DNA of 63,610 nucleotides, counting the filler, from Licmophora abbreviata (taxonomy: Eukaryota): the NCBI GenBank assembly GCA_900291995.1. It is 13 parts of 13 records of this genome, joined end to end, with 100 filler letters (N's around TTAATTAATTAA, not from the genome) between each part and the next. Parts side by side here need not be neighbours in the genome. Positions count along the whole stretch, not along the records: positions 39,714 to 55,320 come from OLMU01004443.1; 12 more parts are not named here. One strand, 5' to 3'. Each line of letters begins with the position of its first letter. Position 1 is the first letter of the stretch. The translations under genes were made by a program, and so were the position numbers. The notes under the pieces were generated by a model that saw only the letters and a program-made list of their open reading frames with translations, ran no database searches and was not told where the DNA came from. Positions 5,722 through 61,559 of the stretch are shown here, piece by piece.

Positions 5722-5821
5722 NNNNNNNNNNNNNNNNNNNNNNNNNNNNNNNNNNNNNNNNNNNNTTAATTAATTAANNNNNNNNNNNNNNNNNNNNNNN
5801 NNNNNNNNNNNNNNNNNNNNN
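5722..5821. other. Artificial scaffold spacer N44-TTAATTAATTAA-N44 (also at 13780, 15724, 17403, 22241, 25345, 26684, 36479, 38204, 39614, 55321, 60987)
   Basis: Twelve identical 100-nt blocks with a palindromic six-frame-stop core. Confidence 0.98.
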
Positions 5822-15909: not shown

Positions 15910-16331
15910 GGTGTCACCCCTGTGTCTTGTGTTAGCCGTTGATTTCCGCTTCAGCAACACTGTGGGCAAAACGAGTGAGTCGCGAGTCTTGTAAATTTTT
16001 AAATGCTTTCAGTACTGGAGATCGTGAATGATTTGAATCCCGGTGAATTTTTGATTTCTCGTGATCCAACGCACGTCCGTCCGTTCTTCGTTTGACCAAT
16101 CGAGACGGCAGAAGCACCCTATTCGATCATTAGAGGTTACCAGGCAATGGTCCAAAGTGTAAAACCGTTACTAGCAAATGGAAGTCACAGACGGTTACAT
16201 TTTACTAATGGACTTCGACAAAGGAAAAGCCGAAACCTAAATTCTATTTGCTATTTTATTGATAGAGCTCTGATTCATCATGAACTGGCGTTGGCAAAAC
16301 GTAACAAACGTAGCTACCGGTACTTTGTGAA

Positions 16332-25221: not shown

Positions 25222-25803
25222 GATGGTGATCAAGCTGATGAATGAATGCCTGTCCACGCTGTATACACCACATTCAACATACCAAACCTGTCAATCCGGT
25301 GGGAGAAATGAAAATGACTTGCTGGTGACCCGAGGAAAAATTTGNNNNNNNNNNNNNNNNNNNNNNNNNNNNNNNNNNNNNNNNNNNNTTAATTAATTAA
25401 NNNNNNNNNNNNNNNNNNNNNNNNNNNNNNNNNNNNNNNNNNNNTAAATTTGGAAGGTGAATATATTGATATTCATTCACTTATTAAAAGTTATAATCGC
25501 CGGGGGAGTTCGCAAGACTTCCCTACAGATTTCCAAAAAAACTTGCACCGGAGACCATCATACCTGCTACTCCGGTATGATACATGGCAGGTACACTTCC
25601 TATACATCCGTCATCGGCGGCGTATCTCCAGGTTGCTGCATGCAGTTTCCTCACTTCGTTTTCTGATTTCCCTTTACCTGGCACGACCTGCCATCCTTTT
25701 AAACTGGTGTACTGGTACAGGTAATCTACAATCTGGCAGCGGTGCATGATCAGTTTTACTGCACGTTGATGGCGGATGGAAAAACCATCCTTCATCTTTT
25801 CCC

Positions 25804-26683: not shown

Positions 26684-26886
26684 NNNNNNNNNNNNNNNNN
26701 NNNNNNNNNNNNNNNNNNNNNNNNNNNTTAATTAATTAANNNNNNNNNNNNNNNNNNNNNNNNNNNNNNNNNNNNNNNNNNNNAAATGTAGCTAGAGAGG
26801 CATTGAATGCTTGAATCACCTCGTCAATTGCTTACTGTCACAATCTACTGTTTCACAGTCCATTTATACGTTCGTATCCTACTGCT

Positions 26887-36375: not shown

Positions 36376-37009
36376 GGTTGCGAACAATTGCATTGGTTCT
36401 AAGATATGACTGCTGAGTTCGAATTTTCCCAAGGGATGCGTTGGATGTGAGGCCGTGAGGCATCTGATCAACAAAAATNNNNNNNNNNNNNNNNNNNNNN
36501 NNNNNNNNNNNNNNNNNNNNNNTTAATTAATTAANNNNNNNNNNNNNNNNNNNNNNNNNNNNNNNNNNNNNNNNNNNNGACATAGCTCGACCTGACCGTT
36601 GCTAAGCCAACTCGTTCAACTTTCCCGCCAAAAAATGTCCAACTTTCCTCATGATGTCCTTCGTCGTAAAAAGCAAAATTATTGTGAATAAATGACCACG
36701 TAATGATGGTGATCCTTATCAGCCAATGTTCACTACCTGTACCTGGTACTGTGCCGAAACCGTCTTCCATACTGAAAAAATGGCTGCTGATATCCCTCTT
36801 CACTCATACCGTACAGTAGTATCGTACCTGGTATGAGTTAAAGTATTTTGTGCAACTGCTCTCGAGCGTAGCTCGGCGATCGCGACTGAGTTTCTGGAGG
36901 TATCGGGGGCGGCGAGTGCCGTTGCTGTAAGTTGATCGAAGAATAAAAACCTCCGGGGACCTAGGGCTAGGAATGAGGATGTACATGTCTTGCTGTCGAA
37001 AGACTTGAA

Positions 37010-38203: not shown

Positions 38204-38319
38204 NNNNNNNNNNNNNNNNNNNNNNNNNNNNNNNNNNNNNNNNNNNNTTAATTAATTAANNNNNNNNNNNNNNNNNNNNNNNNNNNNNNNNNNNNNNNNN
38301 NNNGTCGCACTGTATATAG

Positions 38320-39475: not shown

Positions 39476-40987
39476 ATGAAGCCGATGACAGCACTTTCTC
39501 TTGGGTTAACAGCGGCTATCCTGTCTATGAGAGGTAGCTATGCGTTTATTAGACCGTCCCTAGGAGTCCTGAATCGTCCCTTGCTCTCCCAAGGGAGTTA
39601 TGATTCTCGACCTNNNNNNNNNNNNNNNNNNNNNNNNNNNNNNNNNNNNNNNNNNNNTTAATTAATTAANNNNNNNNNNNNNNNNNNNNNNNNNNNNNNN
39701 NNNNNNNNNNNNNAAGCAGGCGAGACACTGTGCGTCTAGTATCTTCGTCTTCAAATGGGGACAAGAACGATGCTTCTATCTGGGAACGTGTCGCATCTCT
39801 ATTTTCTCAGACAGCGGCAGAGAAAGCGTCCGCTCCATACGCCGAAATTCTAACTGGTGCGGATCGGAAGCGAGTACAGCTCGTTACGTTGATTCGCGTC
39901 GGCATTCCCTCGGTGCTGGCCGGCATCGTTGCTACCTACGCGTTTCCCCTGTTTGCACTTGGCTTAGCCACAATTATGAATGATGCAGGCGTTTTTGCCG
40001 TCTTGTCTCAGGACTCCTCTCAGTTTGTTCAGAACTTCCTCACCGTTTCGGGACTTCTCTTCAGTATCCTCGTGGGTCAAACGTACTATTTTATGTACCA
40101 ACAGCAGGAAGCAGTCTACTATGCGCTGTTCAATGAAGTCACTGAGCCAAAAGCCTGTTAGAACAAGTCGCTCTCGTCTGCCAGGGTCGTGCTATGTATT
40201 CACAGGTTCTCAACTCTATCTCGCAGTATGTCAGAGACGACCTGAAAAAGCTGCAGGCTGACCCAGCTGTTCTGTTGAGCGCCCGGCCAATTGACGATCC
40301 CCTTGAAAGCATCATGTACATGACTAGTGTAGGCGTGCCTTCGTCGGTCTATGAGACTGTTCGAAGCTTACGACAGGCACGCGCCGGGCGACTTGGAGCC
40401 TTGCAACGCAAGTTGCCGGCTGTGCACTTGCTGCTCTTGTGGATTCTCGCTGCCATTGAATTAATTAGCTTCCCGCTTCTTGGTGCTGGTACTCAAACGA
40501 TTGGAGGGTACAACATTTTATCGGTAGAAGGATGTTTGTTTGGAGTAACTACTTTTGGGATCGTTATGACGTTAAGGGTGAGTCACCTGTTTCACCGACC
40601 GGTCGAGTCACTCATCCCGTGTACTGACAATCGATTCGATCGTTTCTTGCATAGGTGGTGGGTGAGCTGTGGCGCCCCGCAGGTGGAGCATACAATGTGG
40701 ATAGCGTACTGAGTGTCATGGTTAGTGGCTTGGAAGAGGAGCTACAGGCGCGTATGTCTGGGAACAAAGTGTATGCGGCAAGAGACAAGTCGCCTTCTCT
40801 ACCAAGCCTTGACAGATACCGTCTTCCCGAGGATACTCTGAAACTTGACGTTGCGACCCCATCTTTGAACCCGTCCTCTTCAGACGAACCTCCATCTCTT
40901 CCCGTGTTGAAGCAAGGTATGGACATAGGAGTTTTTGCAAGGAGGGCAAGGCAGTTGGTAAGGTGGGTGTTGCGAAGACAAAACTGA
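39476..40987 (+). CDS. Plastid-targeted multi-pass membrane protein (DUF4239/bestrophin-like); gap, frameshift ~40146, intron 40578-40654
   Basis: Signal peptide ending SYA|FI; hydrophobic helices; GLLFSILVGQTY...ALFNEVTE(A)KSLLEQ and RLGALQRKLPAVH resemble DUF4239. Confidence 0.62.
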
Positions 40988-41063
40988 CCGACCGACTGCA
41001 TATTCGGTTGTTCAGAAGCTATATAGTAAAACAGTATTGCTATTGATCTTTCTTACGCTTTGC

Positions 41064-42839
41064 TTACGATAGATTTCGTACTTTTGTCATTAGCTCATCG
41101 GATATGGCCTTGTTCTGCATGAACTCTCGCATGTACATGATTGGTTCCACTCCTAGATCAATAGCATTCACACCTCCGATCTGCTTTCCTCGAAGCCGAT
41201 CCGGTGGCAAATGAGACCGCAACAGCAGCTGATCCTTTGATGACCCCGCATTTGCTCTTTCAGTCATCTCAATTACATCTTGGAGAGCATTTAGATCATT
41301 CATCTTCATGAAGGGACAGGTAGCGCACCCGCCCGCCGTGCTGCAACCCTCTCCGCCACCAGCACCCGGCACCACGGCGAGATTCGTCGCGTCGTCACCT
41401 TCGACACCCATGACAGCATTCGATGATACTGGAAAGATAATTTCTGCCTCTACATCGCTCCCAGTTGCATCCAGGATGTCCTGTACGGACTTGACAATGG
41501 ATGTCACCATACCAGCCTCCGTTCCCAAGATAAACTTGAGTCGCTTTCCGTTCGCAGCGGAGCCTAGTTTCTTCGCTGATTCATCGACCTTGGCGGTGAT
41601 GAACTTTAAAATATCTGAAGTCGATCCCACAACACCTCGCCCTTCCATGCTCCTTTCCATTGCGATCTCGAACATTTCTCCAGGTACTTCAAGATGAGCC
41701 GTCACGAAGGCATCATCATAGTTGCGCTTGACAGCATCCACCACCTCGGAACCAAACATATGATGAACTACGCAATTCCCATGAGGGTACACATCCATGT
41801 TGTCCAGCAGGTCTTGAAGACTCTTTCGTGTATGCGCATGGTGCAGCTCTTTGGCAATCCGAGCATCGTCCCACGCATTCGCGCCCCCATCAGGCGACGT
41901 AGAACTGAGGACTGCCCTCAACATGGACACGAGATTTTCTCCCATGTACGTGTCAGGTCCATACAATAGCTTCAAGTCTGGTCCCACCTGTGCTGACGCC
42001 TGCAGTATTGTCTGAAGGACATTAGACGATGTGCAGGTAATTGTGGGCACGATCGACGTGCTGACCGCTTTGGTTTCCAGACTGGTGTTGATGTACACCA
42101 CATGCAACGCTGCATTTGCCGTTTCCTTCGCTGTTCGCAGCCAGGCCTGGTACGAGTCTCGCTCCGCCGACTCGGCCAACGAACATCCAATCGCGCTTGG
42201 CGTAGCGCGATATACGGGTACATGTCCAAGGCCATTGCGATCTAAAATAGCCGACACACTCTCCGACATGAAGTCCACTCCCAAGCACGCCACCGCGGTC
42301 ACAGAACTATCGGGATTCCGACACATGTCTACGGCAATATCTCCCATCCTGAGAGAATCAGCAATGCCCACACGGTGCTGCAAGTCTGGGTGGGAACGTT
42401 GGACAGCCGTCAGGACCCCCTGCAGCTCCACGTCCATGTAGTAGTGCGCCACAACACCCATGTTTGCACGTAAGAGCCCGTCGCTCAATTCGGCAACAGC
42501 ATCCGGATCTGGATCCAGGAACTAGAAAAGGGGCGACACACAAGTGTGACGAATGAGTTTACCATCTTGACGCACTCAATCGTCGGACACAGCTTGAACC
42601 TTTGTGCACGCTATACGTACCTGCGCCTGAGCTTCCGCAAAGGAGCCCTGTGGAACAATGGTCTTGTTGGGTCCAATCACAATGGACGGAAAAGTCTCGA
42701 CCGTCTGGTCATATGCAGCCGTGGCCCCCATGGTACTCTTGCTTCGAACAATCCGATTGGCTGCTACGACGGCCCGACCTGTCAAGGCGCCGGCACTTTG
42801 AGGAGTCGACAACAGGATTTTTCGGGAAAGAGCCTGCAT
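41064..42839 (-). CDS. nadA: Quinolinate synthase (plant-type NadA domain); intron 42522-42620
   Basis: FAEAQAQ|FLDP, VVAHYYMD, DSLRMGD, LGVDFMSE, YINTSLETKA, CTSSNV, ILGTEAGMV; [4Fe-4S] Cys in GCSLA, NCVVH, CPFMKMN. Confidence 0.93.
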
Positions 42840-43218
42840 TCTGGTTCAGACTGGAAGACTTTACCAAGGGAAAGTAGCAATGGACACGATAAGGGAAAGA
42901 TGAAGCTGCTTCCGGCAAATGATGGCATCAGCGCATCGCTCAGCAAAGAACAAGTTCGTGATATTTGGGACTGATGTTCATTTTGTGTGGCGGGAAACTA
43001 AAGTTTGTTTTCTACGGAATCGTTCCGTAAGATCTACGTAGCGTCTGTCTGACTACCAGACATCTACTTCTTTAAAGTCAAATTGGAGTCACATTTCATG
43101 CCGGTAAATGTCGACGCCCCAGCGCAGTTTCCACTCGACGTTGTTAAACTATATGTAAATATGCTTCACCTAATGCAACTATGTTTCGCCCGGCATTCGC
43201 TGGTCCCACCCGACGCTA

Positions 43219-45126
43219 TTACTTGCTGTCATCGTTCGCGCCATCGTCGTTCACGACGTCGTCGTCCGCAGCCGGTCCATTCTCGACGACTGTTGGTGCT
43301 TCCTCCACCCTATACGTGGGCTTGATGTGATCTTCCTCGTCCAGCTTGTCGTTGTCTTTGCAACAACACCAGATCGCCAGATAGAGCGACACCACTATCA
43401 TCATCGTCAAGCCAATGACAGCAATCTCAAACTGTTCGTACTGTGTGACGCCCTTCGAATACGGAATTCCAAGTCCGACGGCGATAGTCCCAACAAACCA
43501 AACAATGACGGTTAGCATGATGATCGAGTTCCATAGCAAACCCTTACCCAAGAAGCAGCTAATCGCCATGGAGAGACCGAGAAGCCCCAACGCCATACTT
43601 GACACAACCAGGACAGGGTCCGACCAAACCTGCGCATCACAGCTGCCTATCCCTGGAGAACTTTCTTCAAAAATCTGACCACAAACAGTCTTGTCAAGAA
43701 TCTGCTCAATGTTGCCCGTCCGGGCGTCGGTACTGTAGGACTTGATGACCAAGCACGGTTCTTCTCCGTCACCATTGAACTCGACTGTACTGTATTGATG
43801 GTTTCGCTCAAATGAGTAGGCATTGCAGCCATCGGAGAACGGACCACCTTTGACGCTTCCGGGACGATCCAACGGCCCAGACTGGAGAATGGGAAACGAC
43901 AGCGCCGGTCCTTCTTCCGTTCCATAGAACGTGTTGACCCCAGAATCAAAGGCTACCATATGAGCATCCGCTGAGATCGCAATGAGGTTCTGCGTTTCAG
44001 AGAGGGTCTGAGTTATGTAGTCAGAGAGCTCTTGACGATCCTCCGGTTGCCCGAACCACGAGTCTTGGCCTTCCTCAGCCTCGCCGATCCAAGGCTTGGT
44101 TGTTACCCATACCACAAAGTCGTATGAAGCCGCCTGTGACAATTCGTTAAAGAGCCACTCCTTTTGTTGCTGCGAGTAGATACTTTCAGTCGATGACTCC
44201 GCTCGGAGATCCGAAATGATGAATCGCACTGTACCAATGGTATACGCGTGGTATGTAGCATTCGCCGAAGGCAGCGGCGAGTAGTGCGGAAATGCAAGAC
44301 TGTAGCTGTCCAAGGCTGCTTGTCGGCCCTCTCCCTCACCACCACTGTTGTTTCCAAGCCAATCGTGGTCGTCCCACATATAGGACAAACCGGTCGTTTC
44401 GAACAGTTGTCGCTGGGAACTGCTTCCCATGACTTTGTCAATTGCTGCCACACGCTTGGGCACACTATCCTCGTTGATTCCCTCGTAGTGAAAGTCACCC
44501 AAGTGCAGGAAGAAGAGCGGATTTTCATCCCGAATCTGGTCAAAGATCTCGTGCTTCGTGCCTGTGTAGGCACATCCCGCCGTGGCAAACTTGAAATTCG
44601 TGCGTTCTCCCTCCGCTGGAGCCGTCTTGAAGCTTCCGCTTCGAAGCTCAACGCCATCCACCATTGTGCCGTAGAAGTATGAAGTATCCGCCTGAAGACC
44701 TTGAACGGAAATGACGTCCACCATTTGAGTGGTAATAGAAGACAATCTAAGAGTTTCTACCGCCGAATCAGCGTCTAGCAGGTCACTAGACGTGGAAAGG
44801 ATGAATATCTCGGTCGACTCGGGAGGATCCTCCGAACGACGAACATGAAAGTTAGCTGCCGTTGAGGTCAGACCGCCGACCAGAATCCAATTCTGATATT
44901 CGCTGGTGCTGTAGTTCTGATTCGTTAGAACAGCAGAAGTAATCGCAGAAACCGCGAAGAAGATAATCAGAATGATGTTCAATGTGATGAAACTAAAGAA
45001 AGGCGGAAAGCTGCACCAGCGGCACCGACCTCCGCCGTCGGTGGTGCCTTCGTCCGGCTCCCTCACCAGATCCAATTCGGACCCCACTGGGATCTCGATG
45101 GATTCGTCGTCACTCATGGTCGCCAT
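43219..45126 (-). CDS. PhoD-family alkaline phosphatase-like protein with N- and C-terminal TM segments
   Basis: LHLGDFHY, WDDHDW, SDLR, SADAH metallophosphoesterase motifs preceded by an FN3-like region (GLQADTSYFY). Confidence 0.88.
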   Translation of the reverse strand: MATMSDDESIEIPVGSELDLVREPDEGTTDGGGRCRWCSFPPFFSFITLNIILIIFFAVSAITSAVLTNQNYSTSEYQNWILVGGLTSTAANFHVRRSEDPPESTEIFILSTSSDLLDADSAVETLRLSSITTQMVDVISVQGLQADTSYFYGTMVDGVELRSGSFKTAPAEGERTNFKFATAGCAYTGTKHEIFDQIRDENPLFFLHLGDFHYEGINEDSVPKRVAAIDKVMGSSSQRQLFETTGLSYMWDDHDWLGNNSGGEGEGRQAALDSYSLAFPHYSPLPSANATYHAYTIGTVRFIISDLRAESSTESIYSQQQKEWLFNELSQAASYDFVVWVTTKPWIGEAEEGQDSWFGQPEDRQELSDYITQTLSETQNLIAISADAHMVAFDSGVNTFYGTEEGPALSFPILQSGPLDRPGSVKGGPFSDGCNAYSFERNHQYSTVEFNGDGEEPCLVIKSYSTDARTGNIEQILDKTVCGQIFEESSPGIGSCDAQVWSDPVLVVSSMALGLLGLSMAISCFLGKGLLWNSIIMLTVIVWFVGTIAVGLGIPYSKGVTQYEQFEIAVIGLTMMIVVSLYLAIWCCCKDNDKLDEEDHIKPTYRVEEAPTVVENGPAADDDVVNDDGANDDSK

Positions 45127-45569
45127 TGTCCTCCTTACTGAGGTTCATAAGGGCTCAACGCACGAGAAAGATGTGGGAATGAATCGAATCGAATCGCGTT
45201 GTGACGAAAGACATCAAACTTGCGCCAAACTTGCGACTTCGCGCTCAAATTTTCACACTCTCCAGCGCCCTTGAAGATGTCATTCGTTCTACATCTCTCT
45301 TCGCACATCATGACGCTGGGGCATGCCGGCTGGTGCGACATCCGTACGGCTCGCTCGCGCAGCACCCGGTGAGTGTTTACCGAGCTCGTTTCGGTAGCTC
45401 GCAAACACGACTACGTCATGAACAAGCGCGCGCTGCATTTCGAATCATCCGCGTGTTCCGCCACGTACTGCACCACAGTCGTCGCATCTCGATGATGGTA
45501 CAAATCAGACCATCTACTCATCACTACTTAAACAACGGCCGTTCCTTGTTACATTACAACAGCGTTACC

Positions 45570-46892
45570 ATGTGCGAACCAACGATTCAGGATACGGGTG
45601 CGCAGCAGCAATCCCGAAGTGCCGCATCGGGAGACCCAGAAGAAGAGGCAGACTTCAGCAAGCTTGCTTCCGCTGTCGGGGAAGACGCCCCCGCGTTTCT
45701 TCAAGGAGAAGATGACGACGAAGTAGACAAATCCCAACCAGACTGCTGGAAAAGAACCCGTCAATCTCTTGTTTCTTTCTATTTCGAGAACGAGTTTCTA
45801 GTTCTCGTCGTCGTTGCGATTCTACTCGCCCGTGCCTACCCACCACTCGGAGCCGACTATCTCCAGCCCCAAATTACAGCCACTTGGATTGCTGTCATTT
45901 TCATCTTTCTCTTGGCGGGTTTGGGGCTCAAGACTGCAGAGTTCTCGAAAGCCTTCCAGCGACTATATTTTAATGCTTTCGTGCAGTGCTTCAACTTTGG
46001 GGTCGTGTCAGCGGTCGTATTCGGCTTCTCACGCGCCATGGAAAAGACGGGAGCGATTTCACAGAATCTGGCAGACGGCATGGTGATCTGTGCGTGTTTA
46101 CCAGTGACCATCAACATGTGCATGGTTCTAACCAAGGCAGCAGGAGGAGATGAGGCGTCTGCAATCTTCAATTCCGCGTTTGGTAACCTAGTGGGCGTGT
46201 TCTTGGCGCCAGTGCTGATTCTGGGATACATTGGAGTCACTGGAGACGTGGATCTTGTCGAAGTCTTTTACAAGCTCGCCCTGCGAGTGGTCCTGCCCAT
46301 TGTGATTGGACAAATACTACAGAAAACGTCCAAAGGAGTCGTGGGGTTTGTCCAAAAGTACAAGAAATGGTTCAAGAAGGCTCAGATGTACACTCTGGTC
46401 TTCATCGTCTACACCGTGTTCTGCAAAACTTTCGAAGACGAAACTGTATCAAGTATCGGAGAGATCTTCATCATGATTGCCTTTCAGTTTGTTCTACTCT
46501 GCCTTGTCATGCTGTTAGCATGGTACTCTCTCAAGTTCCTCTTTCCGAAGGAGCCGCGCTTGCGAGTCATGGGGCTGTTTGGATGTACGCACAAGACGGT
46601 GGCCATGGGTGTGCCGCTGATCAACGCAATCTATGAGGGAAATCCGAATGTGGGGATCTACACGCTCCCATTGCTGATTTGGCATCCCATGCAGCTGGTC
46701 ATTGGCTCGGCTCTGACGCCTCGGCTGTCGGCCTTTGTTGATCGGGAAAAGGAACGACTGGGGAGTGTCGGTGATGACGAAGACGGAGGCGAGCTTCCAG
46801 TGTCAGACGGACAACCCGTAGAACCGAATCAACCTGCTACATCCGCTGAAGAGGAAGAAACGACGCAACATCGAGACGAAGAAGCACCATAG
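45570..46892 (+). CDS. Sodium/bile-acid cotransporter family (SLC10A7/BASS-like)
   Basis: [58 protein letters not shown]; about 10 TM segments. Confidence 0.9.
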
Positions 46893-47150
46893 AGAATAGA
46901 GAGCACTGTTAGATGACCGCACTACTATCAATTTTTGCGTTCGGCTGTACTCGTACCGTCTGGTAGTCTCCCGGTACTAGTCGAGGACGCACAGACCGCG
47001 GCGCCCAACACAGCATGCAGTGCCATGGCATTTTTTTTGACAATGGATCCTTGTTCACACCAAGGCACACATTGTGAACAAGCAAGCTAATGCGTGAAAG
47101 CCGATGGACACCAACATTAATAACGATCTAGATATCATAAACTGTTGCCA

Positions 47151-47852
47151 ATGCGTGACAGAAGCACCAAGCTACATTCAATCGATCTTCATGAAGCCGA
47201 CTCGCAAGTCGCTACTAATAGCGCAACCAGTGATACGCACCGTTTCGCGGCATTGGTGAACGGCATTCAAGGATTGAGAGTTCCAGGGAGCAAGGGCAGA
47301 CGGCACGGTGGTGTTCCAATAATTTCGGGCTTGGACAAGGTCGCCTTTGGCACGCAGGCTGCGTCGGAAGTCGTACAGGTTTGCGGTATTAAGCCTCCCA
47401 AGTACCTCTGGTACATGATTTCGGGAGCCCTTTGCGATGTTTTACAGTTTCTTATTGACTACGCCCTTCACTTCTATGTGGCAGATGCCAGCGCTTGTTG
47501 GGCGTTGAGTTTTACCATGAGCATCGCGGCGCGGCACACCACCCATCGCTACCTCGCTTTTGGAGACTACGTTGGCGGGTACTGGAGAAGTCTGCGTCGC
47601 ATTTACGCCGGCTACTCGTTGACCATCGTATTGTCGACGCTATTCAATATCTTAATGACGCGTGGGGTCAGTTTTCCTCATTACGTGGCGTGGGTCTGTA
47701 CACAGCTGTGGACTGGGATTGTGAACTACTTCATTCTCAAGAAGCTCTGGAGTTTTGGGGGCGCGCCACCGTCTTCTCGAAGACAGGGGAGGGCTTTCAT
47801 TTCCAAGACAAGTGCCGTAGAAAGCTCTCTGGAACTTACAGAAGGCCCGTAG
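47151..47852 (+). CDS. GtrA-like small membrane protein
   Basis: Four hydrophobic helices with YMISG..., HRYLAF and NYFILKKLWSF, the GtrA two-repeat pattern. Confidence 0.7.
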   Translation: MRDRSTKLHSIDLHEADSQVATNSATSDTHRFAALVNGIQGLRVPGSKGRRHGGVPIISGLDKVAFGTQAASEVVQVCGIKPPKYLWYMISGALCDVLQFLIDYALHFYVADASACWALSFTMSIAARHTTHRYLAFGDYVGGYWRSLRRIYAGYSLTIVLSTLFNILMTRGVSFPHYVAWVCTQLWTGIVNYFILKKLWSFGGAPPSSRRQGRAFISKTSAVESSLELTEGP

Positions 47853-48320
47853 AGTAGACCAGCTAGCAGCTTCTTTGTTGGGACTTAAGGTTTTGAGACC
47901 AAGATCTACTCACGATTGTGGCAGCCTGTGACAGACGCGCACCTTGCGTGCCGGCGCAAACACGATCCCTCCGAGCGTTGAGTCTCTACAGCGAACCAGA
48001 AACCGGTACCACCAGCAACTTACATGTATTCAAACAAATTTTTCGTTTTCCAGTGTATTGCCATGTACCTCGTGCTGGCTTGACCACAGCAAAATGCTGG
48101 ACTAGCAGCCAGTCTATGGTTGTTCCTTTCTATGTTAAAAGTGAGCTAGGCACATCTTCTCATCAACACCGGCAAAGTAGAGTTTCTATAGAGCGTCCTG
48201 ACAAAGGTATGTTGCGCTTAGCCAAAGGTTACACTCTGTATCTGCTAATGTAGTTTGTCTCTTTTCAGGACGGTCAGTGATTGTCTACTCCATCCGTCAC
48301 GCGTTGTAGCACGTCGCTCA

Positions 48321-48386
48321 ATCGCGAGATCACGAGCTCTCTGTGTTTTACAGCCATTCATCTTTGTATCGCGAGATCACGAGCTC
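48321..48386 (+). repeat. Perfect 19-bp direct repeat ATCGCGAGATCACGAGCTC (48321-48339, 48368-48386)
   Basis: Read directly from the sequence. Confidence 0.9.
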
Positions 48387-48603
48387 CTTGCGTTGCGCAA
48401 AACATTTTGAAAGCCGAGCCCACCGAGCTCGAGCCAGCCCCACTTTGCAAGATTGGAATACGTTAAGTAAATCGAAATATATTATTCATGACCGTATACC
48501 TATCGACCCCGATCTTCTCGCAACGAGCCGAAGGAAAGCTCACAATTTCGAGAACAAGTGCTTGTCACACCCCCCTTTTGAGTCTTTCTTTCATCAAACA
48601 ATC

Positions 48604-49269
48604 ATGGCTGCTTCCAAACTAAGCGTCTCTGAACGCCAGCACCGCAAGCGAACTGCAGCTAGGCTTCGTCAGCAGCGATGTAGAGCTCGCAAGCGCCTTG
48701 CGCAACTTCAAAAGCAGAAGATACCTCCGTCGCCAAGTACAAAGCAATCTCGCGTGAAGTCCCTTCCGCCGAAAAAACGGATTCCTTCGATTATCACCAC
48801 ATCATCTCCCATCACTCTCCCCTTAACTCAACCAGAGACTGTCAGTGGGGCCGTAAGTCTGGACTCCTGGAGCGATTACAACTTCCCACGCTCCAATCTG
48901 GATCGGTCGAACTCATTTGATTCGAACGAGTCCTGCTCTGACAACAAGACGGACTCGTCTTCCCTCTATTCCGCGAACAGCTCCCCTTCGCCTCTACCTT
49001 CATCCCCAAATTTGCCACTTCAAGAACCCACGACCAAGCTGTCCAACAAGAACAAGGAATTCCTGGCCGTCGATGCTATGCTGTCGCTAGGACGACCGAC
49101 CAACACTGGTTGTATGCATGGGATCGTCAAGCCCCTCTCCCGCTACCCTACTCCGATGTCTGCCTGGCTTCCATACATGTTGACAGAACAACCAACATTC
49201 TACCCCATGATCCAACATCGCGGTTCATTCTCTACAGAATACCTGTATCACGTCCCCCGAGCCGCATAG
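48604..49269 (+). CDS. Putative transcription regulator with a bZIP-like basic region
   Basis: RKRTAARLRQQRCRARKR basic helix, LPPKKR, Ser-rich tract, AVDAMLSL motif. Confidence 0.6.
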   Translation: MAASKLSVSERQHRKRTAARLRQQRCRARKRLAQLQKQKIPPSPSTKQSRVKSLPPKKRIPSIITTSSPITLPLTQPETVSGAVSLDSWSDYNFPRSNLDRSNSFDSNESCSDNKTDSSSLYSANSSPSPLPSSPNLPLQEPTTKLSNKNKEFLAVDAMLSLGRPTNTGCMHGIVKPLSRYPTPMSAWLPYMLTEQPTFYPMIQHRGSFSTEYLYHVPRAA

Positions 49270-49944
49270 CTCGAGCGACGGCCATAGCTATCCTCTAGCC
49301 AAACAAGCTGGCCGAGATCACGACGATCAAAAACAGCACTCGCCCGTGTTTATAAACACAATACATAGATCTTAACTTCCTTTTCGTGCTAGGCTACGCC
49401 TTTCATTGAAAATACTAGCGTCACTATCATCATAAAAGGTTTACTAAAGAGTGTTAGAATCAATTGGGGTATGTTCGCATGCTCGTCGCCAAACGTGACA
49501 TCCACGAGCTCTCTCTTCGATCCGGAACAATGAACACCCTTCCGTCTGCACAGCGCCCGTTCACCCTCCGGGTACTCTTGGTGCTGAGCGCTCTCCGCCA
49601 CCAATGAATGAACTTTTTCGATACACTGTACGAGGTTCTACGTAGAATCTACGCAACTCGGAATTTCGAAGTGTGTCTCTAGTCCATCAGTCACCATCAC
49701 ATCGGCACACAAAAAGTGATGGCTATGTTGTCATCAATGGCACGTAGTTGACGGTTGATTGATTGTCTTTCGAAACTTGTGAGAGACCTTGAGGTCCCAT
49801 ATTTGCTCTCTGGAGGTGCCAGGATATCTCTGGTGAAGCTGCATTGTGCCAGACGGACTGAGTTCCATTGCCCCATCCTAGCACACTCAACTCCAATCAC
49901 CCGCATTTGGTGTCGTCTCACCTGGACAGCAAAGCACAAGCAAA

Positions 49945-51754
49945 ATGACAATACCACCAAACTTCAGAGCATGTCGACGGAGAAAATCAATAGTCCAGAC
50001 TTCCAGACAAATACTGAGGCATACCATTTTGATGACCACGTTTGGCCTAATTTTACGTAATACTGCCACAAGCACGGACGCTTTTTCTCTCGACAGGATA
50101 TACCCGGCGCAACACAGGTATCGGCGTCCCCTGTTTCGCTTCAAATCTTGTCTCCGCATGAAATCTAGCGACAACGCTGAAGGGGGCGAACGAAATAAGA
50201 ATACGGGAAAGCGGAAAAAGAAGAAGGTTCTGAAAATCGACTCGAAAGAGGACAAGTTCACGGGGCCTTCACGAGTAGAGGCCGAGCTGCTGGGGCGTGT
50301 GGGGAAACTGGAAGAACTGGTGGCGCGACAGGAAATCGAACTTCAGAAGCTGAGGCATGAATGCTCAACCTTAGCAGAAGCAGCAACGGCCTTTGGCAAG
50401 GTCGTGGAGCTGCTACGACAAGCCGGACTGGAAACTCCCGAGGTGCAACCACTGACACAAGAAGCACAGCCAGCAGAAACACCATTGCCGGAGAGCACCG
50501 CGAACAAGACGACAACTCAAGTGGGGAAAACAACCATGGAATTCTTTGACGATAGCGAGATCTTCGGGACGGCCCCAGCATCCGTTATTGATGCGGCAGA
50601 CTCTGCGGGCGCAGCAATTTTGGCCGGAATGTTAGGTGGAAAGCAGAGAATGCTCGTAGACGTACGTGACGCCGAACTCAGTCGGGACCCCGAGACGCTG
50701 GTCCAGTTCATTGAACTTGCAATTCTTCCGGTAGCAGCTGGACTAGAGGGACTCAAGAGTGCTCGAAATCGCGTCAAGATTGTCTTTCCTACTGTCTCTC
50801 AGCTGTTACAATACCGCCGAACGATGGCCCTTGCCGCACCAGATGTTGTCACCCTCAGCACGTTGGGGTTTGATCCGATCGAGAAACAGGACAACATTGT
50901 CGTCATTGTTGCCCCGTCACCAGATGACGAAGAAGGTCTCATGGCTATGAACGAGCTTCTTGAGCCGACGGATCCAGAAAATATGTCCATAGGGCAACCG
51001 CTTGTGATTTTGAATCACCACATGGTGCCTGTAACAGGTCCAGCTGCCTCATTCGAAGTCGCATATCACCTGCGACTCCTAAGTGTTCAGTTCATGACTG
51101 GAAATAAGGCCCCTGAGAACTTTCAGAGATGGGACGAGGATGTCAAGGGAAATAGGAAGCAAAATCCAAAAGGCGAAGTCCAGAGCGGGGAAGTCATATC
51201 TGGAACGGAAGGTGAAGCTCCGGCAATTGGTTCCGAAGGACGCCAAGAAGATGACGAAGCCCTAGAAGCCGCAATGAAACACGCAGCTGAGCTGGGTGTG
51301 AATCAGGGAGTTACCCGCGCCATGGTCATTCGAGCCTTTCCCAGGTAAGGATTAGGGTGTAGCGGGATCCGTCTGCACATTCCTTGTGTTCATTCGGTCG
51401 TCCTCATTCATTTGTCATACCTGCCATTAACGATTCAGGCCATGGCACGTCTTTGTTGATACGTCGCCCGACAGTGACGCTGACTTTGAGGTTGCTGCCA
51501 CATTCGACGAGGAACCGTCCCAAGAGGCTGTCAACTACGCGATTGTGGAGTGCCTGGAAGGGAGCGAGCATGAAGATGAGATCGTCGCCCAACAGATGCA
51601 ACAAGCACTTGAAGAAGGCCAGCTCGATCGTGTATCGGAAATGTTAGGGACGATGTCAGCATTCGAGACATCGACAGACGACGAACAGGAGACTGACAAG
51701 GAAGACACTGAATCAGATGACTCAGACAACGATGGAGACGACGCTACGCCATAG
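49945..51754 (+). CDS. Plastid-targeted DUF1995/LPA3-like protein; intron 51345-51438
   Basis: TDA|FS cleavage motif; IVFP, VIVAP, PLVILN, AYHLR, RAFPR|PWHVF, ATFDEEP pattern; N-terminal coiled coil. Confidence 0.65.
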
Positions 51755-51813
51755 CTAGTATTTGTGTTTATCTGTAACAGTGCTATTGTACCAACATATT
51801 TATTCTGTACTCT

Positions 51814-53474
51814 CTAAGATACTGCATTGGTAGATAGGAGACGCTCGAGTTTGGCCTTCTCTGATAGAGCTTCGCTCAGCTGTTTCTGCAGTGCCTGCGT
51901 TTTCGCAACAGCCGCCGTCAAGCCCGTCATCATTTGAGCCTTCAGATCGTTGACTATCTGCTGGACACTAGCGTCAGATTCTTCTTTCTGCTTCCTTAGG
52001 TTATCATTGACCTCACGAAGCTTGCGCATCTGTGGTCACGCGAAAGGAGCGTTAGAGTCGAATTATACAATTGCGGGTGCGAGGCCGCACGGCGAGTCGA
52101 GCTTACTTGCCTCATCAAACAAATCACGGAAGGGAGTGACCCGCTGATCATAAGATCGTCGTATCACTTGAAGGTGACCTTCCAATCTCTTGTTCTCAAT
52201 ACGGAGCGAGTTGATCTGTGATCGAAGCGCGGCAGACTCTTTGCTGGATTCGACCGGATCTCTCTTACAAGAAAATTCCGGTATAGACTCCAGAATAGCC
52301 CTGTCGTTGATTCTCAACACTTCATTTGGCACCTCCAGTAGCTCTTCAGCCTCGGTATCTTCCGCTGTTGATATTTCAGAGGCGCTCGATGACTGCTTCT
52401 CCTCTGACTCGTTTCGGGCGAATCTTCCAGAGCGCTTGCCGCAGGTGGTGCTTGCCCAAAAATGGAGTCCTTCCTTCTCTGGTGACATTTCCTCCTTGTC
52501 GGCTCATCGTTCAGCACTTCATTGCGCCAGTCCAGTTCGCCTTCATCGTCATCAAAAGAGCCACTAGAAGTTTGTTCCGCAGCAAATGATTCAATCCGCT
52601 CCTCATCGATTGCCACCCCTTTCTCAGTTCCTGGAGCGCCTTGAACACATTCATCCTTTCTCGTCACAGACTTTCGAGTCGATTCCGCTGACGACTCATG
52701 AGATTGTGTGCGTTTGGACGACACGACAGAAAGTGGCGATGGAACTTCACGATTTTCCAAAGACACAACCATTCCAATCAGGTCGTCGGTATGCATCGCG
52801 TGTCCTCCAGTGCAGGAGTCGGTTGATGGTGACTTGGCTGAGGTTTCTTTCGATCCCATTGTTGCAGCGAGTGTCGATTTTGGACCAGAGCTCGCGGCCG
52901 ATCTTCCTAGCGGTACGTTAGCATCTTCGTTTTCACTGTCACTCAATCTTTGACGTGTGGACATGTCGTCTCCTTTAGCACTGCATTCCAACTTTCGTTG
53001 CGCAACTAGACTACCTCTCTCTTCCAATGAGCCACTACGTCGCTCCCCCCGGGCAACTTCACCCTTCCCCAGAGTCGAAAGCGGTCGCCTACGACTGGTA
53101 ACAAAACTGGGTCGAAGGCTGCTACTACTGCTGCTTCCGGTCGGATGCTGTTGTTGAGAGGCAGTCACGCTACTTCTTGCCGCCACGTATGGACTTCGAC
53201 TCTTGATAATGTACGGTCGAGGAAGTTGCACTGCCCCGCCAAACGACTTGGAAGCTGCAGAGTTCTCTGTGTTTTGAGACGACGCATTAGTGTAGCTCTT
53301 GTTGCTCAATCGTCGTGCACTTCCGAGACTCCGGGGTGTTTGGTAGCTGCTGAGGGTGATGGTGCTGAGAGGAGTGCCGCTGGAATTGCGTTTCTGTTTG
53401 CCCTGCTTTTTCTTCTTTTCGAGCCAGAACGCCAGTTGTTCTTCCCTTGACAGCTGCGGGGACGGTGTCGTCAT
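51814..53474 (-). CDS. Low-complexity protein with C-terminal coiled coil; frameshift ~52413; GC-AG intron 52030-52110
   Basis: Three consecutive ORFs joined by one homopolymer correction (SPE-NESEEK) and one intron (FDE|MRKLRE). Confidence 0.65.
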
Positions 53475-53799
53475 GATGAGAGGACAAAGCGTACGTTCGC
53501 TTTCGATGAGACGACTACGAGTATAGAAAGAGAGAGAGCACAAGTCAGGAGAGATTCGACATTCGATGAGACGGTTCGAACACGGCATTCAAATTCAACG
53601 TGCGTTTCGTACTGAGCTCTACGAAGAGCAACGACAAAAAAAGGTCCGTCAGTCATCGGTCGTAGATCGCGTGCGCGGCGTTGTTCGCGCTCTTGACGAC
53701 ACACTCTCACAAAGATCCAAAAACAAAAAGAGATACCACTGCATTCCCATCACAGATTACCGAGGACAGCGTCGACTGTCTAAGCTCATTACGATCAGC

Positions 53800-54195
53800 A
53801 TGATGCACGGAGGAGGATTCGGAGAGGAGCAGCCGGATCCTACAGAAGCCGAGGTCGGGCACTTCCTCTCGAAAAGTGAGCTTCTCGAATGGCACGGGCA
53901 GATGCAGGAGCGATACCCGCAGATCTTCACGCCAGACGACAAGCTGTTTGGTGACGATGGCGAGCAGCACCCACTGGGAACACAGCTGATGGCCTACTTT
54001 GACGATGACCCAGAGAAGCCAATGCGTGTGGAAGTGATGGGGTCCCGGTGGAAGATCGAGTTCCGTGACAGGTCGCCGGTGTACATCGTGAGATTCAAGG
54101 GAAGTGCCGAACTCACGCAGCTCGAGCTGACCAGTGCGCACGAGGAGGGAGGCTGGACGGTGGGATGGGATCGTCCTCCTCCTGCTGCCGGCTAG
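53800..54195 (+). CDS. Small hypothetical protein (131 aa)
   Basis: ATG-initiated ORF with GC3-rich coding-like composition; no family recognised. Confidence 0.6.
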   Translation: MMHGGGFGEEQPDPTEAEVGHFLSKSELLEWHGQMQERYPQIFTPDDKLFGDDGEQHPLGTQLMAYFDDDPEKPMRVEVMGSRWKIEFRDRSPVYIVRFKGSAELTQLELTSAHEEGGWTVGWDRPPPAAG

Positions 54196-54301
54196 TACTC
54201 ATCAGAACGTCGAACCAAGCTTTGTTAAAGGACACCAAGGACAGGATTACTACAAGTTTGTTGGCGATTGTCTTCATCAAAGCACATAGTTACACAACAC
54301 G

Positions 54302-54377
54302 GATCCACTGTCTTGTCACGGGAATAATACTGAATAGTTCATGCCATTCTTCAAAATCCCGGTCATTCATCAGTATC
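54302..54377 (-). promoter_or_regulatory. SECIS-like element in the 3' UTR of the DsbA-like gene
   Basis: Minus strand: ACTG..ATGAC-CGGGATTTTG-AA-GAATGG(catgaa)CTATTC-AGTATTAT-TCCCG-TGAC..CAGT, giving an AUGA/GA core, apical AA 11 nt after AUGA and a type-II mini-helix. Confidence 0.65.
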
Positions 54378-54397
54378 TGATTCCGCGAACGCAACTC

Positions 54398-55153
54398 TTA
54401 CTCTTCAGCGGCATCTTGTAAGCATTCAGCAATGATATCCGAGGGCTGTGCTCCCGAGAAGGCCACAGGGCGCCCGCCCTTGTTCTGCTCAATGATGAAA
54501 AAAGGGACACCGGAGACACCACCTTGTTTCCAGTTGCGATCCTTGTACAGGACGCCATCGCGACGCTCCTCGTCTGCCATGACTTCCTCCGCCGTTTCCT
54601 TCGGCACCTCGTGTTTGGAAGCAACCTCGGCAAGCAACGCACTGTCGTTGATGTTCTCTCCGTTTTCAAAGTAACGCTTGTACAAATCCTCCATTAGATC
54701 ATTGGCCGCATCATTCTTATTGTTTTCTTTCAGATACTCCACAAGGGTGTGCGCCTTGATCGTAGGATAAATATTCCGGTCGTTCGTAAACTCGATTCCC
54801 ACCGCACGACCACTCTGCCGCAAGGACGAATTCGGATCCCCAAATCGCCGAGTCGCACTGGGACCATACTTCTTCTCCAAGTGCTCCATGATGGGCTCTC
54901 CCTCGTCCGGAAGATTGGGATTCAGAAGAAAGGGCTCCCACTCGTATCGGACTCGCACGCCAGACTCTTCCACCGCCGTCTGCAAATGGCGCAGTCCGAC
55001 GTAGCAAAAGGGTCAGACAACGTCGCTGACAATCTTGACATTCACGGCTTTGGGCAGTGTACTCATGGCAGCGGCAGCGGCAGCAGCAGCAGCAGATGAA
55101 CTCATTCCTAGTAGCAGTAGTAGTAGTATGGTGAGGGACAGAGGCAGGATCAT
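54398..55153 (-). CDS. DsbA/FrnE-like thioredoxin-fold oxidoreductase, probable selenoprotein (UGA=Sec at 55013-55015, UPFC)
   Basis: MILPLSLTILLLLLLG...MSTLPKAVNVKIVSDVV-TGA-PFCYVGLRHL...WEPFLLNP...SGVPFFII...FSGAQP, continuous in one frame apart from the TGA at the catalytic Cys position. Confidence 0.9.
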
Positions 55154-55538
55154 GGGAGAGCTTGAGTAATGGGAATGGACAATAGACCAGGCGTCTGGCG
55201 TCGCGGCCCGGCCGACTGCTCGACGAACGACAGCGAAAGGAGTCGGTGAGTCGAGTCAGTCGTGACTCGGTCAGGCGTTGTTGGGACTCGACGCGGTCTT
55301 CTTCTCTTCACAATCAACATNNNNNNNNNNNNNNNNNNNNNNNNNNNNNNNNNNNNNNNNNNNNTTAATTAATTAANNNNNNNNNNNNNNNNNNNNNNNN
55401 NNNNNNNNNNNNNNNNNNNNGGTAGAGTAGGACAGTGAAGGTACCTAGACCTGGAATCGTTCGCCCATTCTAGTAGTATTTGCCGTTCGGAACACTACAG
55501 AGAAAGAGACGATGCGACGTTAGGAGTTCTAACATAAG

Positions 55539-57282
55539 CTATTTCTTTGCGCGGTAAAAGTTCAGGTAGCTCATGTGCCAGTCTCCACCCCCTTTGAGCT
55601 TAAGCACGTCCTCCGTTTTACAGGGGCTGACTTCGTCGTCATCAAAGACAAACCAGTCTTCGTTGTCTTCGTCCGTATCGGCGATCTTCTCGATTTTGGC
55701 GCCGCTGTGATCCGCTTTGACCCATCCCATGTAGTGCCCACCATCGGCGTCGCGTCCCTTGTGCGTGACAACCGCGAAAAGATCATACTGTCCTTGAAAC
55801 TGCTCTGGTAGTCCCGGGCCCACCACTTCATTTGTTTCCATGCTCATGGCAAGAGCCTCCTGCAACGCCGCAGCCTCTTCGGAGTCCTCCGTATCCATCG
55901 CGTCGTCACCATTGGCCTCTTTGCCCTCTTCGCTCTCGCCCTTGAGTTTCTTATTGATTCGATCCTCTTCTTCGGCCAGCGCTTTGTCACGGGACGCTTT
56001 TAGTACTTTCTGCACCTTCGCAGAGCAGAATTCGTAAACATCCAGCGTCCCCGAAAAGGCGACTGGTTTCATGACCTTACACTTGACCCCAGCATGATCA
56101 GCCGAATCGGGAGTACTCTTCCAGTAGAAACGTCCAAATTGAACGACAACGATGGGAGGAAGGCGAGCGATCCTCTGTGTTCGGGTCCATACCGCATCAC
56201 GACCCAGCACCTCCGAATGCTTTTCGATCTTGCCGCTCAACGACAACGCAATGCCTTCTTGAATATGACTGACATTCGTCTGCGCAGTTCCGTCGGCACC
56301 ACCCTGAATGTTGCAGACAAGCTTGCGATGCAAGTCCCGTTTCACAACAGGCGGCTCGACTGTTCCGTCCTCGTTGTTCTCCGTTGCGTTGGAGAATTCG
56401 TCACACGTGAGTGTTTCTTCCATTTCAATTCCAAACGCGGCATCCACCAAGTTCCTAGCTCCCATGAGTTCTTCCTCCGTGACTCCCTGCAGACCCATTC
56501 GGATCGTCTCTGCCGATACCGTTTCGGCAGCCGCAATCGTCAAGAGTCCAGAATAGAATTCCTCAGCATCCTGTTGCATGGGCTGTCCCTGCGGTCCCGT
56601 CTGCGCAAACTGCGGAAATGCCATTTTGGTCGCCTGCACAAGTCGAGCTGGGGGGACGGCATCTGCTGTGCGGTCGAGATTCTGATACACATCCTTGAGG
56701 GACGATAAGAAGAACTGGTTTGGACCTGGCGAAGCGCCGTTGCGGGGCGCGTACGTCTCGAGTCCCCTGCGCAAGGGGGGAACGGCACGGAGGCACTGTA
56801 CGACGGAGTTCATATAGCAGGTGTTTCCCAAGTTGACAAGACCGGACGGTTCCGCCACCTTGGCTATTTCTTCTGGTGGGAGGTCTTCTAGGAAGACAGT
56901 CTTTGTTTTGGGAGCCGCGAGTTTTGTGGCCGATCCCATGAGGAGAATTTGCAGTTCCTTGGATTTCGTCAATGCGGCAGCAAAGTCAATCGAGGAGAGG
57001 TCAAAGTCGTCCTTCAAGACGCCTTTCCACAGTCCTGCGGTGTCACACACGTGCAATAAGGGGTAAGATATCATCCTTGAAAAAAGTGTGCTAGTTTGCG
57101 TCGTCCAGGATGTCGTTTCCATACGCACCTTTACTCTTGGGCATGAGCTTCATGCGATCTGCCGGGACGCCCGTCTTTTCCTCCAGATCCATTTTAAGGC
57201 CCTTCACTCCTGCGTCCACCACAAGACTCGTTTGGATAGTCTCCTTGCCCCATTTGACGGTCAGTGGGTAACTATCTGCCAT
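55539..57282 (-). CDS. USP14: Proteasome-associated deubiquitinase USP14/Ubp6; intron 57035-57128
   Basis: UBL domain (VKWGKE...TGVPADRMKLM...LLMGS), Cys box GLVNLGNTCYMNSVVQCL, QQDAEE, His box HKGRDADGGHY, GGGDWH. Confidence 0.95.
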
Positions 57283-60334: not shown

Positions 60335-61559
60335 ATGTCTGCCATGTCAAGGCAGCAAAAAGCCAAAGGCGAAGGCTTTATGAAGGAAGCGGAAAAGACA
60401 CTGAAGAAATCGGCTTGGTTCGCCTCATCCAAGGAACGCAAGTTCGAAGACGCCGCCGAGCTCTACGAAAGCGCCGCGAACGCCTTCAAAGTAGGCGGTT
60501 TCTTCCAGGAAGCCGGTGATGCGTATATGGAAGCTGCCAAGCTCCATAGGGATGAACTGAAGAACTTGGGAGAGGCCAGCAAGGATCTTTCGCAAGCAGG
60601 TAGGTCGACTGGGTCGTGGCTATGTATTTCGCTATTGGAAGCGGATAAAGATGTATTCTTGTTGACGACAAAACTGTACGACGCACAGAACCACATGGAC
60701 CCTCGTCTCATATCGACATGGCGCTCTCACCTCTATGGCTGTTCTATTTCTGCTCTCACCAGGGTCTTGTTACAAAAAAGGCAATCCCGCGGACGCCGTC
60801 AAAGCGTACAAAGCTGCCGTTGCGTTGATGACAGACGCTGGACGCCTCACACAAGCTGCCAAAATGTCCAAGGAGGTGGCCGCCATCTTTGAGACAGAAG
60901 ACGTTTGCAACAAGGAAAAGAGCAGCATTGTCTTGGCCATTGAATCGTACGAACAGGCAGCGGAGCTGTTTGGTATGGAAGACTCGNNNNNNNNNNNNNN
61001 NNNNNNNNNNNNNNNNNNNNNNNNNNNNNNTTAATTAATTAANNNNNNNNNNNNNNNNNNNNNNNNNNNNNNNNNNNNNNNNNNNNAGCTGTTTGGTATG
61101 GAAGACTCGAAATCGCAGGAATCGCAGTGTCGTGGCAAGGTGGCGGAGCTCTGCAGTGCAGCCTTGGATCCACCCGACTTGCTGCGGGCGGCCAAGATTT
61201 ACGACGACTTGGGACGGAGGTGCCTGGATTCCAACTTGTTAAAGTACAATGCAAAGGGATTCTTTCTGCAGAGTGTTCTGTGTCACTTGGCCAATGGCGA
61301 TTCCGTCGGGGCGGGACAGGCCTTGCAGCGTTACGAGAGTCTGGACTATACGTTCAGTGATTCGCGAGAAGGAAAATTTTGCACACAGCTGATTGAATGC
61401 GTAGAGGGCTTTGACAGTGAAGGCTTTGCGACTGCGTGTTATGAGTTCGATCGAATCTCCAAGTTGGATCCGTGGAAGACGTCGATGTTGGTCAAGGTCA
61501 AGAGGACGATTGAAGACGAGGACGGTGAAGGCGACGACGACGATGTGGATTTGACGTAG
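60335..61559 (+). CDS. NAPA: Alpha-soluble NSF attachment protein; intron 60600-60762; spans a false gap
   Basis: FEDAAELYESAANAFK, GRLTQAAK, YEQAAELF, NLLKYNAKG, FSDSRE, FDRISKLDPWKTSML, acidic DDVDLT end. Confidence 0.95.

Follow-up and report, generated by a model that had tools for sequence, protein, structure and literature searches.

We analyzed a 63,610-nt stretch of DNA from Licmophora abbreviata (assembly GCA_900291995.1), referred to below as the window, in whose coordinates all positions are given. One of its contigs (39714-55320) carries a gene for a DsbA/FrnE-type oxidoreductase that is interrupted by a single in-frame TGA, and this is very probably a real selenoprotein gene. The gene and the features that belong to it are as follows.

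54398..55153, minus strand: DsbA/FrnE-type gene in its longest frame, 251 codons plus TAA when the TGA is read as selenocysteine (Sec, U); the copy in the window is intronless
55067..55153, minus strand: optional N-terminal extension MILPLSLTILLLLLLGMSSSAAAAAAAAA, encoded by repeated CTN and GCN triplets; represents a signal peptide or else 5'UTR that is translated
55064..55066, minus strand: third in-frame ATG, M30 ('MSTLPK'), giving a 222-aa product with no hydrophobic leader; this Met is conserved in relatives
55013..55015, minus strand: in-frame TGA, predicted Sec codon U47, aligned with the first Cys of CPWC in FrnE; TGA in six of six related loci
55004..55015, minus strand: active-site motif U-P-F-C, residues 47-50, inside D44-x-x-U-P; conservation assessed in 23 diatom-type sequences
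54503..54511, minus strand: cis-Pro loop G215-V216-P217 of the thioredoxin fold; V216 and P217 invariant in 27 aligned sequences
54400-54398, minus strand: stop codon TAA
54306..54375, minus strand: SECIS-like element, form 2, in the 3'UTR; obtained by unconstrained folding, with GAATGAC in seven of seven genes and covariation in helix II
55321..55420, no strand: contig linker N44-TTAATTAATTAA-N44 on the upstream side of the contig

With the TGA translated as U, the frame gives a protein of 251 aa containing ...VKIVSDVV-U-PFCYVGLRHL..., and only this one TGA interrupts it. Conventional ORF listing splits the gene in two, with 46 aa in 55153..55013 and 195 aa from a TTG at 54985 to 54398. An earlier, sequence-only reading of this DNA had placed an ORF from 54985, a single TGA at 55013-55015, and ATGs at 55066 and 55153; all of these were recovered, and a further in-frame ATG was found at 55105 (all on the minus strand). 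The contig ends 167 nt upstream of the ATG at 55153.

The window contains twelve identical 100-nt linkers, N44-TTAATTAATTAA-N44 (5722-5821, 13780-13879, 15724-15823, 17403-17502, 22241-22340, 25345-25444, 26684-26783, 36479-36578, 38204-38303, 39614-39713, 55321-55420, and 60987-61086), and thus consists of 13 joined contigs, so that neighborhood across a linker is not physical. A USP14-like gene on the next contig (55539-57128), whose best named relatives are from pennate diatoms (Nitzschia, Seminavis, Cylindrotheca, and Fistulifera; 65-69% identity, with further matches up to 76%), therefore speaks for the assembly and not for physical linkage to the DsbA gene. The other long ORFs of the window are ordinary eukaryotic genes. 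Downstream of the DsbA gene lie two ORFs without a Pfam match, at 53566-54195 (plus strand, 209 aa) and 52314-53588 (minus strand). The former converges on the 3' end of the DsbA gene, and the 3'UTRs of the two may overlap because its stop at 54195 is only ~110 nt from the SECIS-like element.

Family and fold of the read-through protein

The Pfam DSBA profile (PF01323) matched the read-through protein with 92.7 bits against a gathering score of 25.6, and residues 39-245 corresponded to profile positions 2-190/191, indicating that the domain spans the TGA. In a phmmer search against solved structures, the top matches were D. radiodurans FrnE (5cnw/5cp1; E 4e-19) and Streptomyces SCO1869 (3gl5; E 5e-18). 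In the alignment to FrnE, the TGA falls on the first Cys of SDIACPWCYIG, which agrees with the initial proposal that it occupies the position of the nucleophilic Cys. The GVP cis-Pro loop noted along with it was likewise located, at residues 215-217 with its V and P invariant.

An AlphaFold2 model based on 23 sequences had a mean pLDDT of 87.9 and a pTM of 0.80, with low confidence only at residues 1-30. When this model was compared with known structures by Foldseek, FrnE entries and SCO1869 ranked first (E 9e-14 to 1e-12; TM 0.69-0.72), with FrnE being the best (E 9e-14, TM 0.72). They were followed by cytosolic DsbA-like proteins, that is, a putative protein disulfide isomerase of Nitrosomonas europaea (2in3), YjbH, kappa-class GST, HCCA isomerase, and DsbM. 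Classical periplasmic DsbA (the E. coli type, a DsbB-dependent oxidase) was not closest by fold, appearing at rank 24 and lower (E 1e-4 to 1e-3), with TM scores of 0.40-0.53 as normalized to the model.

We assigned the protein to the FrnE subfamily (CDD cd03024, as described in the accessible text of PMC8945050) from its motif and top matches: the CP(W/F)C site appears as U-P-F-C, and FrnE and SCO1869 lead by both sequence and fold. The C-terminal CxxxxC motif of many FrnE members is absent from the protein, which has C244 as its sole other Cys and ends nine residues beyond the aligned domain. FrnE of S. roseofulvus and of D. maricopensis is likewise reported without CxxxxC (PMC8945050, accessible text), and the motif is therefore not strictly defining for FrnE. 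The gene was not assigned to the NCBIfam (seleno)lipoprotein family NF041057, which gave a sub-threshold score (17 bits; cut-off, 190).

The TGA codon and the SECIS-like element in relatives

We investigated the residue at the TGA site among related proteins. The protein search gave 242 matches at E<=0.001 among 984 candidates, and the named matches were from Nitzschia and Bacillariaceae (diatoms). Among the 120 matches listed, the site residue was W in 18 and C in 14, and the site was missing from the remaining 88, most of which start just past it; a 172-aa NCBI entry of Nitzschia inconspicua is one of the latter. In addition, one Nitzschia sp. gene model joins ...VKVVSDV straight to LASQ..., skipping the Sec codon. 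These cases bear out the prediction that gene callers would truncate such genes. The 14 listed relatives with C comprised six of diatom type (41-58% identity) and eight at 35-37% identity; the two of these eight that were aligned read CPWC.

A metagenome scan yielded 80 loci, from which six (L001-L006; 40-55% identity) were examined, the other 74 (28-36%) being outside the count. Because the query peptide patterns specified W or C for the codon in question, the scan was unbiased toward TGA. The aligned codon was TGA in all six diatom-type loci, a degree of conservation well beyond chance, and these loci together with the C forms among the 120 listed matches give the TGA or Cys that had been anticipated for relatives at this position. 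Both flanks of the codon are conserved as V.VKI(V/I)SD..-U-P(F/W)C, including the part upstream of the TGA, as expected of a read-through product. Among 23 diatom-type sequences, S43, F49, C50, and R55 were invariant, and D44, V46, and P48 were nearly so. The UGA thus aligns with the Cys of homologues and is conserved, with both of its sides, in every locus examined.

Short introns flank the Sec exon in some relatives: L002 has one (1357-1500), and L004 has two (around 1230-1500), with the Sec codon inside the small exon between them (...VSDIV-TGA-CCT|GTGAGT...); none are present in the window copy. The database protein P0021, in which W is printed at the site, is identical to the L002 product at 206 of 206 residues past the site, and the L002 intron is missing from it. 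This indicates that W can stand for TGA in the protein database. Furthermore, the intron-free P0021 keeps the site, indicating that the processed form retains the codon and that splicing does not remove it, in line with the first reading. TGA also terminates 6 of the 21 window ORFs of at least 250 aa, so it serves as a normal stop codon in this genome and is not generally reassigned.

The 3'UTR of the gene folds into a SECIS-like element. In the window, it comprises helix I (UACUG/CAGUG), a 5' core AUGA at 54366-54363, a 3' core GA at 54317-54316, and an apical part with an unpaired AA at 54351-54350 (11 nt past the AUGA), a 6-bp mini-stem, and a 6-nt loop. GAATGAC was found in the 3'UTR of all seven genes (window and L001-L006), 32-107 nt past the stop (32 nt in the window), and it was the sole invariant block when the seven 3'UTRs were aligned by MAFFT, the rest of which does not align. 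In all seven unconstrained folds, helix I leads into a large internal loop, which carries GAAUGAC on its 5' strand and (U)GA on its 3' strand, and beyond this lie helix II and the apical part. Because MAFFT aligned only the 5' core, base pairs were counted by a script whose register was anchored on the AUGA and GA core motifs. The fourth non-Watson-Crick pair of the SECIS quartet is expected at the position adjoining AUGA, and this position never held a standard pair in the seven genes (C.U in six and C.C in one). In the next seven positions of helix II, 41 of 49 cells were paired, and they covaried, with up to six pair types per position. By this comparative analysis, done by hand, the element has the AUGA/GA non-Watson-Crick core, helix II, and unpaired AA of a SECIS.

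Other measures of the element were less distinctive. Rfam covariance models, SECIS families included, gave no SECIS match at E<=10 in 53000-56000 or in 54050-54420 (371 nt); the sole match, an lncRNA at 10 bits, was judged meaningless. The fold of the window element was not more stable than that of shuffled sequence (z -0.38), and three of the other six folds were unremarkable in stability (z -1.46, -0.68, and +0.39). Only three of the seven elements, those of the window, L002, and L004, have the AA at the canonical spacing of 8-11 nt from AUGA; in L001, L003, and L005 it is farther out, and L006 has none. In L006, a more distant relative, the SECIS-like element (L006:2219-2259) has an apical part without AA and a loop with CC. 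Unpaired CC replaces AA in the DsbA SECIS elements of Ciona intestinalis and Branchiostoma, according to the accessible text of PMC2874816. GAATGAC itself is not enriched in the whole window (10 matches versus 12 expected), indicating that its position matters rather than its abundance.

An ad hoc SECIS descriptor, written after the candidate had been seen, found seven sites in 127,220 nt of the window, the one at 54306-54375 included, compared with a mean of 1.45 in 20 block shuffles. The six other sites, at 16857 (plus strand) and at 57814, 52699, 49003, 48605, and 32483 (minus strand), were rejected; three of them lie inside long ORFs, and no credible TGA-containing ORF was found upstream of 16857, 49003, or 48605. 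The site at 16857, an ATGA...GA hairpin whose helix has 7 bp (TGTCGCA/TGCGACA), is probably due to chance, since it is antisense to a minus-strand ORF (16314-17009) and has no credible TGA-containing ORF upstream.

The sequence-only reading had proposed a hidden DsbA/FrnE selenoprotein with a UxxC active site. This proposal is upheld by the alignment of the TGA with Cys, by the TGA in six of six loci, by the SECIS-like element in seven of seven genes, and by the normal use of TGA as a stop.

Start codon, leader, and alternative readings

We next consider where translation starts. In 24 of the 25 N-terminally informative relatives, a Met, in most cases as 'MS', precedes the SD motif by 8-26 residues (mostly 10-16). 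Ten relatives begin at this Met or one residue earlier, and L003, L005, and L006 have no in-frame ATG farther upstream. This conservation, together with the lack of an upstream ATG in these three loci, suggests that M30 (55066) is a conserved initiation site. Judging from the sequence comparison, translation from 55066 to give 222 aa with no signal peptide would be at least as likely as the long form.

Alternatively, the protein may be made as 251 aa from the ATG at 55153, with a Leu-rich cleaved signal peptide that would route it to the ER or into secretion, for a role as a PDI-like oxidase/isomerase; we hold this to be plausible, though somewhat on the doubtful side. The leader MILPLSLTILLLLLLGMSSSAAAAAAAAA has a 14-residue hydrophobic core with a 9-residue hydropathy of up to 3.38, followed by small residues, and its pLDDT is ~50. 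An in-frame upstream Met is found in 14 of the 25 relatives, and the upstream part exceeds a 9-residue hydropathy of 2 in eight of these 14; thus, about half of the relatives, L001, L002, and L004 among them, combine an in-frame ATG farther upstream with a hydrophobic stretch after it. The extensions of L002 and L004 have the motif M-x-x-L-G-(I/L)-(K/R)-S-L-F-x-L-L in common, and the 9-nt difference between their lengths is a multiple of 3; in addition, the upstream AUG is part of the spliced record P0021. Conversely, the pre-SD Met is nearly universal and three loci have nothing upstream of it, as described above. Moreover, the leader in the window consists of CTN/GCN repeats, and third codon positions are not favored among the substitutions that separate the L002 and L004 extensions, in contrast to the mature part. 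The nearest characterized relatives are cytoplasmic (PMC8945050, accessible text), and the C-terminus carries no KDEL-like signal. Of the earlier description of a 251-aa secretory or ER-targeted protein, the 251-aa frame therefore stands, whereas the secretory form is not established. Production of a leader-bearing 251-aa form, possibly alongside the short one, can be entertained tentatively, at slightly below an even balance.

A further, rather unlikely scenario combines these observations: the Sec-DsbA genes of pennate diatoms might have a dual start, in which an upstream AUG yields a fast-evolving signal peptide and a conserved internal AUG ('MS...') yields a cytosolic form, along with a lineage-typical GAAUGAC SECIS that is missed by current covariance models. 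If this were true, one selenoprotein gene would supply both the secretory pathway and the cytosol.

The codon itself could also be a true stop, in which case the locus would be a pseudogene, would give a product from a downstream start without the active site, or would reflect an assembly error. Conventional calling does yield the 195-aa frame from the TTG at 54985, and the database entries of many relatives are similarly truncated. However, the first ATG past the TGA is M89, and a protein begun there would be without strand 1, helix 1, and the CxxC site. The TGA is also kept in all six relatives at 40-55% identity, between strongly conserved flanks. Furthermore, a 257-nt contig from a marine-metagenome run, which may be the assembly's own source, matches 54848-55059 with zero differences, TGA included. 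Eight sequencing runs, with no RNA run among those listed, contain parts of the stretch as contigs, each a share of at most 0.26. Contigs from four of these runs span 54076-55059 piecewise and contain a single C>T, at 54602, in one run, and none of them fell on 53900-54075 or 55060-55320. The conservation of the SECIS-like element and of the TGA argues strongly against a true stop, which we regard as very improbable.

A reading of the UGA as Trp, Cys, or Arg, through near-cognate decoding or a lineage-specific code change and without Sec, would suit the W printed at the site in database translations of relatives, but it is just as improbable, given that this W is TGA in the DNA in the one matchable case (P0021 to L002), that TGA stops 6 of the 21 long ORFs in the window, that the SECIS-like element is conserved, that the site holds the redox nucleophile, a role open only to Cys or Sec, and that Cys-form homologues exist.

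Proposed mechanism and relation to known selenoproteins

Based on these results, we consider it highly probable that the locus is a functional nuclear diatom selenoprotein gene of the FrnE-type DsbA family, with U47 in place of the nucleophilic Cys, UGA recoded via a form-2 SECIS in the 3'UTR, and the main product starting at M30. In the proposed mechanism, the UGA at 55015-55013 would be recoded as Sec, with the 3'UTR SECIS (54375-54306) recruiting the eukaryotic Sec-insertion factors. The product would adopt a thioredoxin fold with an inserted helical domain, in which the N-terminal Cys of CP(W/F)C has become Sec, giving U47-P-F-C50. Analogy with FrnE and the DsbA family suggests that the U47 selenolate would attack a substrate disulfide or a glutathionylated thiol to form a selenenylsulfide intermediate, which C50 may then resolve, leaving an intramolecular Se-S bond. 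Re-reduction by glutathione or the thioredoxin system is proposed, again by analogy, because the CxxxxC relay is absent. The protein may thus serve as a thiol-disulfide reductase/isomerase resembling cytoplasmic FrnE, with its main product most likely made from M30 (222 aa, cytosolic) and a longer 251-aa form being possible.

Diatoms are known to use Sec: tRNA-Sec has been sequenced and 16 selenoproteins described in T. pseudonana (PMC2375036), and four diatoms have 20-44 selenoprotein genes each (PMC7539508), both as given in the accessible text. In the window, ARAGORN found no tRNA gene, and Pfam searches of the 21 long ORFs gave no match to the Sec machinery.

The diatom gene belongs to the Sec-DsbA selenoprotein family that has already been described. 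COG2761 we take to be the FrnE group. Statements below on earlier work refer to the accessible text of each source. In 2005, nine DsbA-like UxxC selenoprotein sequences of COG2761, labeled 'DsbA-like', were reported from the Sargasso Sea (PMC1088965). In 2010, Sec-DsbA was described in Ciona intestinalis, C. savignyi, and Branchiostoma (amphioxus), with earlier Micromonas finds cited, and the Sec exon of the Ciona and amphioxus genes was noted to have been mis-annotated as UTR (PMC2874816). A 2020 survey, in which four diatoms were included, placed DSBA among the most widely distributed algal Sec proteins (PMC7539508), and a 2026 review distinguishes DsbA-like form 1 (UxxC) and form 2 (DxxUP), both within PF01323 (PMC13188914). 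The accessible part of the 2007 T. pseudonana selenoprotein list names no DsbA (PMC2375036). The first reading's statement that Sec-DsbA is known from algae and bacteria thus matches the literature (PMC1088965, PMC2874816, PMC7539508).

Compared by description with the eukaryotic Sec-DsbA of Micromonas, Ciona, Branchiostoma, and algae, the present gene shares the DSBA-like thioredoxin domain, the replacement of the first CxxC Cys by U, and a 3'UTR SECIS, which in Ciona is of form 2; a further common trait is that annotation routinely drops the Sec exon or takes it for UTR. That literature, in its accessible text, does not describe the conserved GAAUGAC core or the hydrophobic extension that recurs at the N-terminus of the diatom copies. 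Bacterial DsbA-like selenoproteins are similar in that they belong to PF01323, and D44-V-V-U47-P48-F-C50 carries both the UxxC and the DxxUP signatures. Their recoding relies on a SECIS hairpin directly past the UGA and on SelB, whereas the gene studied here has a eukaryotic-type AUGA/AA/GA structure ~650 nt downstream, in the 3'UTR. D. radiodurans FrnE (DR_0659; 5cnw, 5cp1, 5xwh) and SCO1869 (3gl5) are the best matches by sequence and fold, but the diatom protein differs from them in having Sec for the first Cys, in its identity of 26-29%, and in its eukaryotic host. It also lacks the C-terminal CxxxxC tail of D. radiodurans FrnE, which regenerates that enzyme (PMC8945050, accessible text).

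Knowledge of Sec decoding and of the DsbA family is unchanged by this gene, and its main value lies in annotation. As 88 of the 120 closest listed relatives lack the active site and one model skips the codon, diatom proteomes and metatranscriptome catalogues under-count Sec-DsbA. The seven aligned SECIS elements, which Rfam models missed, could seed a better diatom SECIS model. The gene would add one more thiol-disulfide selenoenzyme to the already large selenoproteomes of diatoms, which bears on the selenium demand of marine phytoplankton.
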